This document shows, piece after piece, positions 49,374-50,544 of a DNA stretch of 64,000 bases. Within the stretch, counting starts at the first letter, position 1. Every line of letters begins with the position of its first letter. The notes beneath the pieces were generated by a model. That model had not been told where the DNA came from and searched no databases. It saw only the letters and a program-made list of their open reading frames with translations. The stretch lies in contig JAJFIK010000075.1 in assembly GCA_021775005.1 (NCBI GenBank), positions 11,086 through 75,085 on the forward strand, given 5' to 3'. The stretch is from Rhodospirillales bacterium (GTDB lineage: Bacteria > Pseudomonadota > Alphaproteobacteria > JAJFIK01). Position numbers and translations under genes: made by a program.

Positions 49374-50023
49374 CCCACCAAACCGCCCACACAGCGCTTG
49401 GCGAAGAATGGTTCGTGGACTATGCCGCGGGAAACCTGTCGCCAGCCTATGCCGCAGTTGCCGAGTGCTTTCTTGATCTCAATGAGGATTGCCGAGAAAC
49501 CGTCGATGAGCTTGAACGCGTTGGCGGTGCACTGCTTGATACGGCGGATGCGGGTGCGGGTCTTTCTGTTGTCGCGGCTGACTTGCTTGCGCGAGAAGAC
49601 GATGCACCGGAATCCCAAGGGCAGGAAAGCCAATGCCCTGATTACATCCCAAACTCTTTGCGCGAGAAATTTGATCTGGACCGCAATGGCGTCAAATGGA
49701 CATTCCTGGGGCCAGGCCTGCAAAAGGCGCTTTTGTGGAAGGGCAGCAATGATGATCGTCTTTGGCTTTTAAAAGCAGAACCCGGCGTTGCCATTCCCAA
49801 TCACACCCATCGCGGCGCGGAGCTTACCCTCGTGCTGAAAGGTGAATTCAGGGATGGCGAGGATGTCTATGGCGTGGGTGACGTGGAAGAGGCCGACCAT
49901 GACCTGACCCACACCATCAAAATCTCGTCGGAAGAGAGTTGCATTTGCCTTGCCGCCACCAAAGGGCGCCTGATATTTCCAGCGCCTCTTATCAAGCTGA
50001 TGCAAGTATTCCTGGACATCTGA
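49370..50023 (+). CDS. chrR: ChrR-family anti-sigma-E factor (N-terminal zinc-binding ASD, C-terminal cupin)
   Basis: ATGA overlap with rpoE. The C-terminal cupin reads LWLLKAEPGVAIPNHTHRGAELTLVLKGEFRDGEDVY. Confidence 0.75.
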   Translation: MTHQTAHTALGEEWFVDYAAGNLSPAYAAVAECFLDLNEDCRETVDELERVGGALLDTADAGAGLSVVAADLLAREDDAPESQGQESQCPDYIPNSLREKFDLDRNGVKWTFLGPGLQKALLWKGSNDDRLWLLKAEPGVAIPNHTHRGAELTLVLKGEFRDGEDVYGVGDVEEADHDLTHTIKISSEESCICLAATKGRLIFPAPLIKLMQVFLDI

Positions 50024-50544
50024 TGGCGCGAAAAGCCTTTCAAGTCGGAGATGTCATCACTGTCGATGACACGATGCAGTCGGACTATTGCTATCGGCTG
50101 GATGCTCCTATGGGGGAGATATCCAATACAGAATTTCAACCACACCTAACGCCGGTTGAAATGTTGGAAATGGGATGCTTCGAAGGCAAGTACCTGAACG
50201 ACTGCCGCAATGAATTCCCCGCTGAATGGTTCACGAAGGCAAAGCTGAGTGATACGCCCCGACCCGAGCTCAATTACTTCGGGATCAAGAGCCGCCAACC
50301 CCTGTCTCACTGGCGGGAAAAAGGCTGGATCATTGCGCCTGATCCGCGTGGCTGGTTTCAGTGGTATTGCCGGTACTACCTTGGGCGCCGCCTGCCGCAG
50401 GTGGATGCGGTACAGATCAAACGGTGGAAGGGGTTTGCGCGGCATGCCGGGCAAATTCGCGCGAACTGCGAGCCCGGCGATGTGTTTTGTAGGCCAAGGC
50501 AGCGCCAGGCCCTTCTCCAATGGGCGCATGACCCTTTGGTTTGA
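50023..50544 (+). CDS. conserved hypothetical protein, third gene of the rpoE-chrR operon
   Basis: The start ATG overlaps the chrR stop (TGATG). 173 aa, Trp/Cys-rich ([14 protein letters not shown]). Family not recognised. Confidence 0.5.
   Translation: [173 protein letters not shown]

Follow-up and report, generated by a model that had tools for sequence, protein, structure and literature searches.

A 173-residue protein of an unnamed, highly conserved family encoded by the third cistron of an rpoE–chrR unit in a Rhodospirillales bacterium: a probable effector of the sigma-E/ChrR regulon

The 64-kb stretch of the Rhodospirillales bacterium contig JAJFIK010000075.1 that is analysed here (the window) carries a sigma factor/anti-sigma factor gene pair of the rpoE–chrR type, to which a third gene, coding for a protein of 173 residues, is joined without a spacer. 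The rpoE gene (48720..49373, plus strand) codes for an extracytoplasmic function (ECF) sigma factor, with profile matches to Sigma70_r2 (2.7e-19), Sigma70_r4_2 (1.3e-14) and TIGR02937 (103 bits). The chrR gene (49370..50023, plus strand) codes for the anti-sigma-E factor, whose anti-sigma domain is N-terminal and whose cupin domain is C-terminal, and it matches TIGR02451 (anti_sig_ChrR; 143.1 bits, the cutoff being 124.5) and Cupin_7 (7.2e-12). The third gene is the open reading frame (ORF) at 50023..50544 on the plus strand, as seen in the ORF list, in the sequence and from its homologues, and it is referred to as X. Its product, with 7 Trp, 6 Cys and 16 Arg residues and an isoelectric point (pI) of 8.5, belongs to an unnamed, highly conserved family.

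The three genes are chained by overlaps. The last base of rpoE is 49373 and the first base of chrR is 49370, such that the four nucleotides ATGA are shared. At the second junction (cTGATGg; bases 50018–50028 read a-t-c-T-G-A-T-G-g-c-g), the stop codon of chrR, TGA, occupies 50021–50023 and the ATG of X occupies 50023–50025, with one base, at 50023, in common. The nearest relative (P0001) shares the start at the overlapping ATG; its protein begins with MARKTFQVGD and its junction reads ctgatggca. Start/stop overlaps are common in bacterial operons, and the overlap itself is therefore not unusual; it shows that X belongs to the operon. That the ORF is a real gene follows from its thousands of homologues (65–88% identity) and from the 67 invariant columns in an alignment of 29 alphaproteobacterial members; X is the third cistron of the rpoE–chrR unit. 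A preliminary description of this DNA had named the two flanking genes, both overlaps and the Trp/Cys/Arg-rich translation product, had placed X as the third cistron and had stated that the classical unit is bicistronic; the sequence read, the profile matches and the translation agree with this description, and the Rhodobacter sphaeroides unit is indeed described as a two-gene rpoEchrR operon (PMC6852236).

The promoter consensus of the ChrR-type sigma-E factors is TGATCC-N16-CGTA (PMC5507510), and the window contains three exact matches to it, where 0.33 are expected. One of these, TGATCCAATTGGCAACGCCTTTCGTA (48685..48710, plus strand), precedes rpoE and is the sole promoter-like element upstream of the rpoE–chrR–X unit. 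No sigma-E motif is found within chrR by an exact-consensus scan of the window, no sigma-70-like promoter, from which X could be transcribed independently of sigma-E, is found by a consensus scan of the 3' part of chrR, and no intrinsic terminator is found by a scan of the chrR–X junction and of the region after X. Because there is neither a promoter nor a terminator between chrR and X, this gene would be expressed solely as the third cistron of a sigma-E-autoregulated unit. When judged by motif and layout, X lies inside a transcription unit that is headed by a sigma-E promoter motif, as expected for a member of the sigma-E regulon.

Relatives of X were collected by scanning one genome per species, in which at least 584 loci encode a relative of the 173-residue protein, and the best 80 of these loci, mostly from Alphaproteobacteria, were examined. 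Linkage to sigma-E clusters was judged by tblastn with the neighbour genes of the window itself, using a distance limit of 6 kb; gene calls in the fetched loci are greedy ORF calls, and the labels hemF, adenylate cyclase and fasciclin used below come from sequence reading, not from profile matches. In the close relatives X is kept at its position. A metagenomic contig with a copy of X that is 88% identical (L081) preserves the whole layout, including both start/stop overlaps (of 1 nt between chrR and X) and all three sigma-E motifs. The overlap between chrR and X is also kept in two contigs at 83% identity (L172 and L173) and in a contig with an identical copy of X (L083). The association of X with chrR that the preliminary description proposed to examine across genomes therefore stands for the close relatives, whereas most homologues are located elsewhere than beside chrR.

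The rpoE–chrR pair is found within 6 kb of X in 12 of the 80 best loci (about 15%), and the arrangement is variable. X directly follows chrR in one of the 80 loci (L069, Shimia), where a gap of about 150 bp carries a sigma-E motif of its own. The order is rpoE–chrR–lipocalin(blc)–X in L022, sigma-E motif–lipocalin(blc)–X in L034, rpoE–chrR–fasciclin–X in L063, L065, L070 and L078, and FAD oxidoreductase–DUF1365–CFA synthase (CFAS; cyclopropane-fatty-acid synthase)–X in L050. In L058, X is convergent with chrR, and in L061 (Hyphomonas) it is located 4 kb from rpoE–chrR, beside a gene of the short-chain dehydrogenase/reductase (SDR) type. Taken together, the linkage of X to sigma-E clusters is seen in about nine gene orders and in several alphaproteobacterial orders. 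Chance co-location within 12 kb of a 4-Mb genome would occur in about 0.3% of the genomes, and the observed linkage is far above this value, such that the link between X and the sigma-E cluster is real. About 8 loci have an exact sigma-E motif upstream in the same orientation, and in the loci that remain no link is seen. In the unlinked loci the neighbours are unrelated (hemF, tRNA genes, adenylate cyclases and LysR regulators), no gene family being common to more than about 20% of the loci, and no common upstream motif is recognised by eye among the homologues. The variable order and orientation near rpoE–chrR point to a regulon member rather than to a structural partner of ChrR.

The other two sigma-E motifs of the window serve the genes on either side of the unit. 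On the minus strand, TGATCCGATGACGGCTCGCATCCGTA (48647..48672; kept in L081 at 2867–2892) is an exact match that is positioned for a divergent operon. It stands back to back with the motif of rpoE, on the opposite strand and 12 nt apart, as is also the case in L081, and the segment 48647..48710 is, by its motif arrangement, a compact divergent control region for rpoE–chrR–X and for the operon of the oxidoreductase, DUF1365 and DUF4345 genes. The first gene of this divergent operon codes for an FAD (flavin adenine dinucleotide)-dependent, amine-oxidase-type oxidoreductase (47213..48619, minus strand), whose L081 orthologue matches PF01593 (Amino_oxidase) and PF13450. The DUF1365 protein gene (46431..47213, minus strand) overlaps it by 1 nt; its start at 47213 is deduced from the L081 orthologue of 260 residues, which matches PF07103 (DUF1365) and has the same 1-nt overlap. 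The last gene, coding for a small DUF4345 membrane protein (46076..46438, minus strand; L081 orthologue with PF14248, DUF4345), is taken to start at an internal Met, which gives an 8-nt overlap with the preceding gene, such that the three genes are chained by overlaps of 1 and 8 nt. There is no CFA-synthase gene after the DUF1365 gene in the window, unlike in most related clusters (L034, L050, L058 and L063). The oxidoreductase resembles RSP_1091 of the core sigma-E regulon of R. sphaeroides. The R. sphaeroides locus names of the neighbour genes are used here following PMC5507510 and general knowledge.

On the plus strand, the 123-nt spacer between X and the next gene contains TGATCCAAGTCGGTGCGCCTTACGTA (50585..50610; kept in L081 at 4804–4829), an exact match, and shows no unusual RNA structure. 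The gene that follows, with this sigma-E motif of its own, codes for a lipocalin (Blc-like) lipoprotein (50668..51237, plus strand), the orthologues of which in L081 and L083 match PF08212 (Lipocalin_2). Concerning rpoE itself, it is observed that its start is ambiguous, being either the ATG at 48720 (217 residues, as called in L081) or the GTG at 48789, which is preceded by a GGAG Shine-Dalgarno sequence (48780–48783). The ATG is located about 10 nt past the CGTA of the -10 element, which would make the mRNA nearly leaderless, and the GTG is more plausibly the start. Farther away, upstream of the sigma-E cluster, the region 40962..45463 (minus strand) codes for a large sensor histidine kinase of 772 residues and for two response regulators, one with a single domain (173 residues) and one with GGDEF-EAL domains (576 residues), the domains being named from reading the translations only; these three genes look like a separate signalling module. 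On the other side, the region 52068..52904 (minus strand) includes a tRNA-Ser(CGA) gene (52815–52904) and, beside it, an ORF of 148 residues (52068..52514), of which the N-terminal part resembles the conserved end of an Rhs/YD-repeat core and is followed by a short unrelated tail; this ORF is possibly the tip of an orphan Rhs toxin, placed at an insertion site that is linked to a tRNA gene.

The system that is most similar to the unit of the window is the rpoE–chrR singlet-oxygen switch of R. sphaeroides (the ECF11 group), in which the sigma factor gene also overlaps the gene of the anti-sigma/cupin protein ChrR, behind an autoregulatory TGATCC-N16-CGTA promoter (PMC6852236, PMC5507510), and in which the divergent operon also codes for an FAD oxidoreductase and a DUF1365 protein (PMC5507510). 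The R. sphaeroides unit consists of two genes, whereas an unrelated third gene is added by the 1-nt overlap in the window. The two ChrR proteins differ as well. The window unit has sigma regions 2 and 4, the overlapping anti-sigma/cupin gene and the promoter of an ECF11/ChrR system, but in its ChrR the canonical HxxxCxxC motif of the zinc-binding anti-sigma (ZAS) domain is absent: the alignment shows ECFLDLNEDC (residues about 30–42) versus SHVSLCAHC in the ChrRs of the Roseobacter group. In the L081 ChrR, which is 85% identical, the last Cys is lost as well, and the Hyphomonas ChrR (L061) is likewise without the zinc motif. The cupin ligands His145, His147, Glu151 and His181 are invariant in the alignment. 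For the R. sphaeroides ChrR, zinc binding is required for the inhibition of sigma-E (PMC6852236).

The family of the X protein is large. A search of 5.8 billion proteins gives at least 8000 clusters at 90% identity, the best 120 matches being 68–88% identical and about 168 residues long, and when 1.84 billion cluster representatives are searched exhaustively with HMMER, 2381 clusters (50% identity) are obtained at E<=1e-3 and 1330 at E<=1e-10. Across 150 representatives of the 50%-identity clusters, some 25 positions reach a conservation of 90% or more. Polar positions that are conserved in at least 89% of these representatives are N84, D107, R122, R123, D128, Q131, R134, R140, H141 and Q162, and aromatic positions conserved to the same extent are Y57, W97, W102, W111, W114, Y115 and W167; this conserved polar/aromatic surface has the look of an active site or of a ligand-binding site, such that the protein may be an enzyme or may bind a specific ligand. 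The median pI of the family is about 9.5. The cysteines are less well conserved, and a 4-Cys metal or Fe-S site, which was considered as a family feature, is rejected: only C116 is widely conserved (88%), C149 and C156 co-vary as a pair that is absent from many members, and four cysteines are invariant solely in the alphaproteobacterial clade.

The absence of an assigned family, as stated in the preliminary description, agrees with the profile searches, in which the 173-residue protein has no match in Pfam-A or NCBIfam (E up to 0.1), PHROGs or PADLOC. Over the X domain, 59 diverse members are all without a Pfam match (E up to 1), and 240 listed homologues are all named 'hypothetical', none having a precomputed Pfam domain. 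Sequence searches of the PDB with a single sequence and two profiles find no credible match; a weak match of the N-terminal part to PDB 2p7h, a putative methyltransferase, changes from E=0.0085 to 0.53 with a deeper profile and is treated as chance. A comparison with T4 endonuclease V, the pyrimidine-dimer glycosylase, for which a WYxYYG-like motif was the lead, gives an hhalign probability of 0.3%, with a T4 sequence that was entered by hand, and this candidate is also rejected. The monomer is confidently predicted as a single-domain protein with an N-terminal beta-hairpin and a helical domain. The best structural neighbour of this predicted fold, which is not significant, is an FAD-binding Erv-type helical bundle, and the sole match in a Foldseek comparison with viral structures is one member of the X family itself. 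According to the model, the fold is previously undescribed and without a solved relative. A literature search for the signature peptide of the family finds no publication.

Homologues of X are also encoded outside the bacteria. A tblastn search finds them in the genomes of 15 phages, whose hosts are Vibrio, Yersinia, Cobetia and Flavobacterium, and a scan of IMG/VR gives 406 viral contigs with X, of which the best 80 are mostly metagenome-assembled genomes of giant viruses, 49–61% identical to the window protein. Two representatives are eukaryotic, one being from a liverwort assembly and the other from the jakobid Andalucia, and both are extended at the N terminus by a long low-complexity stretch. 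Overall, the phage, giant-virus and eukaryotic members are 35–61% identical. The identity of 49–61% between giant-virus and alphaproteobacterial proteins would imply that bacteria and giant viruses have exchanged the gene fairly recently. A dedicated partner of ChrR or RpoE is not expected in these genomes, and the occurrence of X there fits a stand-alone activity that is placed under sigma-E control.

The best-covered phage matches are those of Yersinia phage YerA41, its close relative vB_Yru_GN1 and Cobetia phage Carin-5. The hypothetical proteins YerA41_065 (L084 28668-29201) and Carin5_00075 (L085 29117-29650) are 37–40% identical over 94–97% of the protein and differ from X of the window in being phage-encoded and in nucleotide-metabolism neighbourhoods. 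YerA41_065 is located between the ribonucleotide reductase genes (nrdAB) and an ATP-grasp protein gene, with a dUTPase gene downstream, and it is annotated as particle-associated; in the YerA41 proteome study, DNA- and RNA-handling enzymes are also found in the particle (PMC7354516). In Carin-5, a dCTP deaminase gene is 4 kb from X. The DNA of both YerA41 and Carin-5 is T-hypermodified, with a thymidine modification of roughly 1 kDa (PMC9023294, PMC12686479). In pVa-21, the thymidylate synthase gene follows X at a distance of about 160 bp, just a small annotated ORF overlapping them or being in between, in vB_pir03 X is flanked by exonuclease and helicase genes, and in a further phage contig a nucleoside deoxyribosyltransferase and a phosphoribosyltransferase are encoded upstream. 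In giant-virus contigs, ThyX and dUTPase genes are present within 5 kb of X. In a series of these contigs (L093-L171), it is observed that X is accompanied in a conserved block by the genes for ornithine decarboxylase, ThyX and dUTPase and by those for a DUF2177 membrane protein and a glycosyltransferase of the GMA12/MNN10 type, which suggests a single algal-virus-like lineage.

The X domain also occurs in fusions, with an HNH endonuclease, with the basic viral domain DUF5872 and, in a jumbo phage, within a protein of 1696 residues having STAND/P-loop NTPase domains. In a phage-like contig (L090), a further protein (P0164; 7001-8188) has the X domain fused to an N-terminal region with a glycine motif like that of S-adenosylmethionine (SAM) methyltransferases; genes nearby code for a CCA-adding enzyme, a T4-type RNA ligase and two proteins that resemble Pup ligases, such that the neighbourhood is reminiscent of RNA repair. 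A Leptospira-like copy of X adjoins an Eco57I-type restriction enzyme gene. Because of the basic pI, the nucleotide-metabolism neighbours in viruses and the fusions, a nucleic-acid or pyrimidine-nucleotide substrate is weakly favoured, as a tentative suggestion that is more easily doubted than relied on.

In the reading that we prefer, with a probability of roughly 0.6, the 173-residue protein serves the photo-oxidative stress regulon of sigma-E/ChrR as an effector; in this lineage its gene would have been captured into the autoregulated rpoE–chrR operon, without the protein being part of the switch. The gene would be transcribed solely from the sigma-E promoter that precedes rpoE, and its translation would be coupled to that of chrR, such that the release of sigma-E from ChrR would cause the protein to be made in step with the proteins of the switch. 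It would be a stand-alone effector that has been placed under sigma-E/ChrR control in several alphaproteobacterial lineages, and our best guess at its substrate would be nucleic acid or a pyrimidine deoxynucleotide that is damaged by light or singlet oxygen. In its behaviour X is similar to the genes of the core and extended sigma-E/ChrR regulon (RSP_1087-1091, phrB and cfaS, and the Pseudomonas syringae PSPTO_1043 regulon): in several lineages X is located behind sigma-E motifs or in sigma-E-driven operons, where it adjoins the SDR, oxidoreductase, DUF1365, CFA-synthase and lipocalin genes. X differs from the core of the regulon in that it is not among the six core genes of PMC5507510 and in being linked in about 15% of the sampled loci.

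Several observations weigh against this reading. The rpoE–chrR pair is not near X in 68 of the 80 best loci, and an exact sigma-E motif is present within 300 bp upstream of X in 1 of 79 loci, or in 4 with a relaxed pattern; because of these two counts, sigma-E control of X, as far as it can be read from gene order and motifs, is a lineage-specific and not a family-wide property. In the window, the sigma-E dependence of X is read only from motif and layout. The ChrR of the window is without the zinc motif that the R. sphaeroides ChrR needs, which leaves some room for an accessory factor. The step towards a nucleotide or nucleic-acid substrate is a weak one: gene neighbourhoods in viruses do not amount to operons, the synteny among giant viruses represents a single lineage that is counted repeatedly, and a DNA- or nucleotide-binding fold is not recognised in the structure comparison. 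Finally, in three Roseobacter-group loci (L015, L028 and L037; about 5990-6010) the 3' end of a hemF-like gene and X are joined by translational coupling, and a lipocalin gene adjoins X in four arrangements (the window, L022, L034 and L068).

It is possible, though unlikely, that X is a passenger, a mobile gene of unrelated function (for example phage-derived or from a conflict system) that landed after chrR and is merely read through. The highly variable genomic context would fit such a gene, as would the copies adjoining tRNA genes (L003, L020, L024 and L075), the phage and giant-virus homologues, the fusions with the HNH endonuclease and the STAND/P-loop NTPase, and the copy beside the Eco57I-type restriction enzyme. 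However, a passenger would not account for a linkage that recurs in about nine arrangements and several alphaproteobacterial orders, far above the chance level, or for a 1-nt overlap that is conserved while the protein diverges to 83–88% identity; in addition, no integrase or transposase gene flanks X in the window, and the protein has no PADLOC match.

In a second alternative, which we consider clearly doubtful, the ligand would be a small hydrophobic photosensitiser or a lipid instead of nucleic acid. The protein might bind or detoxify porphyrin intermediates or oxidised lipids, together with the lipocalin and the regulon's furan-fatty-acid enzymes. The hemF and lipocalin neighbours mentioned above speak for it. 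HemF is the oxygen-dependent coproporphyrinogen III oxidase, and the coupling of X to the hemF-like gene, which was named from sequence reading and not from a profile match, is on this evidence a second link to a photosensitiser-related pathway. The many conserved Trp and Tyr residues of the protein, and the FAD-binding Erv-type helical bundle as its best, non-significant structural neighbour, would also be compatible with such a ligand. The basic pI, the viral neighbourhoods and the fusions favour, weakly, the nucleic-acid or nucleotide substrate instead.

Extra genes that are co-transcribed downstream of a sigma/anti-sigma pair are well known from the E. coli rpoE–rseA–rseB–rseC operon, and the window shares this layout, but to our knowledge RseB and RseC occur only together with RseA-type systems and in synteny with them, whereas X is mostly located away from ChrR and is also encoded by viruses and eukaryotes. 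The suggestion of the preliminary description that X is an extra signalling or co-anti-sigma component, which in the manner of RseB would bind ChrR and/or sigma-E and modulate the release of sigma-E, is therefore very improbable: translational coupling to chrR, kept in the close relatives, would favour stoichiometric co-production, and an accessory factor is conceivable for a ChrR lineage without the HxxxCxxC motif needed for sigma-E inhibition in R. sphaeroides (PMC6852236), but the family is neither confined to nor syntenic with the pair (68 of 80 loci without it within 6 kb), it has members in phages, giant viruses and eukaryotes (35–61% identity), the linked positions vary in the manner of regulon members (after blc, the CFA-synthase gene or the fasciclin gene, or convergent), the Hyphomonas locus has a non-zinc ChrR and yet X is 4 kb away on its own, and Roseobacter-group loci with a canonical zinc-motif ChrR also carry X nearby.

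Within the preferred reading of X as an effector of the sigma-E/ChrR regulon, a more specific proposal can be formulated, which is speculative and rather unlikely to hold in all its parts. X would be an enzyme with a novel fold, whose substrates would be nucleic acid or pyrimidine nucleotides that have been damaged by light or singlet oxygen and that it would repair or remove, and it would be common to bacteria of sunlit waters, jumbo phages (some of them with T-hypermodified DNA) and giant algal viruses, being controlled by sigma-E/ChrR in several alphaproteobacterial lineages.

The sigma-E/ChrR system is the model of the bacterial singlet-oxygen response, and several members of its regulon are of unassigned function. 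The three-gene operon described here is a variant of the classical two-gene rpoEchrR operon and is a modest addition to the knowledge of the ECF11 group. The family itself is the more interesting part, being large, highly conserved and nameless, without a recognisable fold, and common to jumbo phages and giant viruses. Its recurrent recruitment to the sigma-E regulon points to photo-oxidative or ultraviolet (UV) stress as a concrete condition under which a function may be assigned to it.

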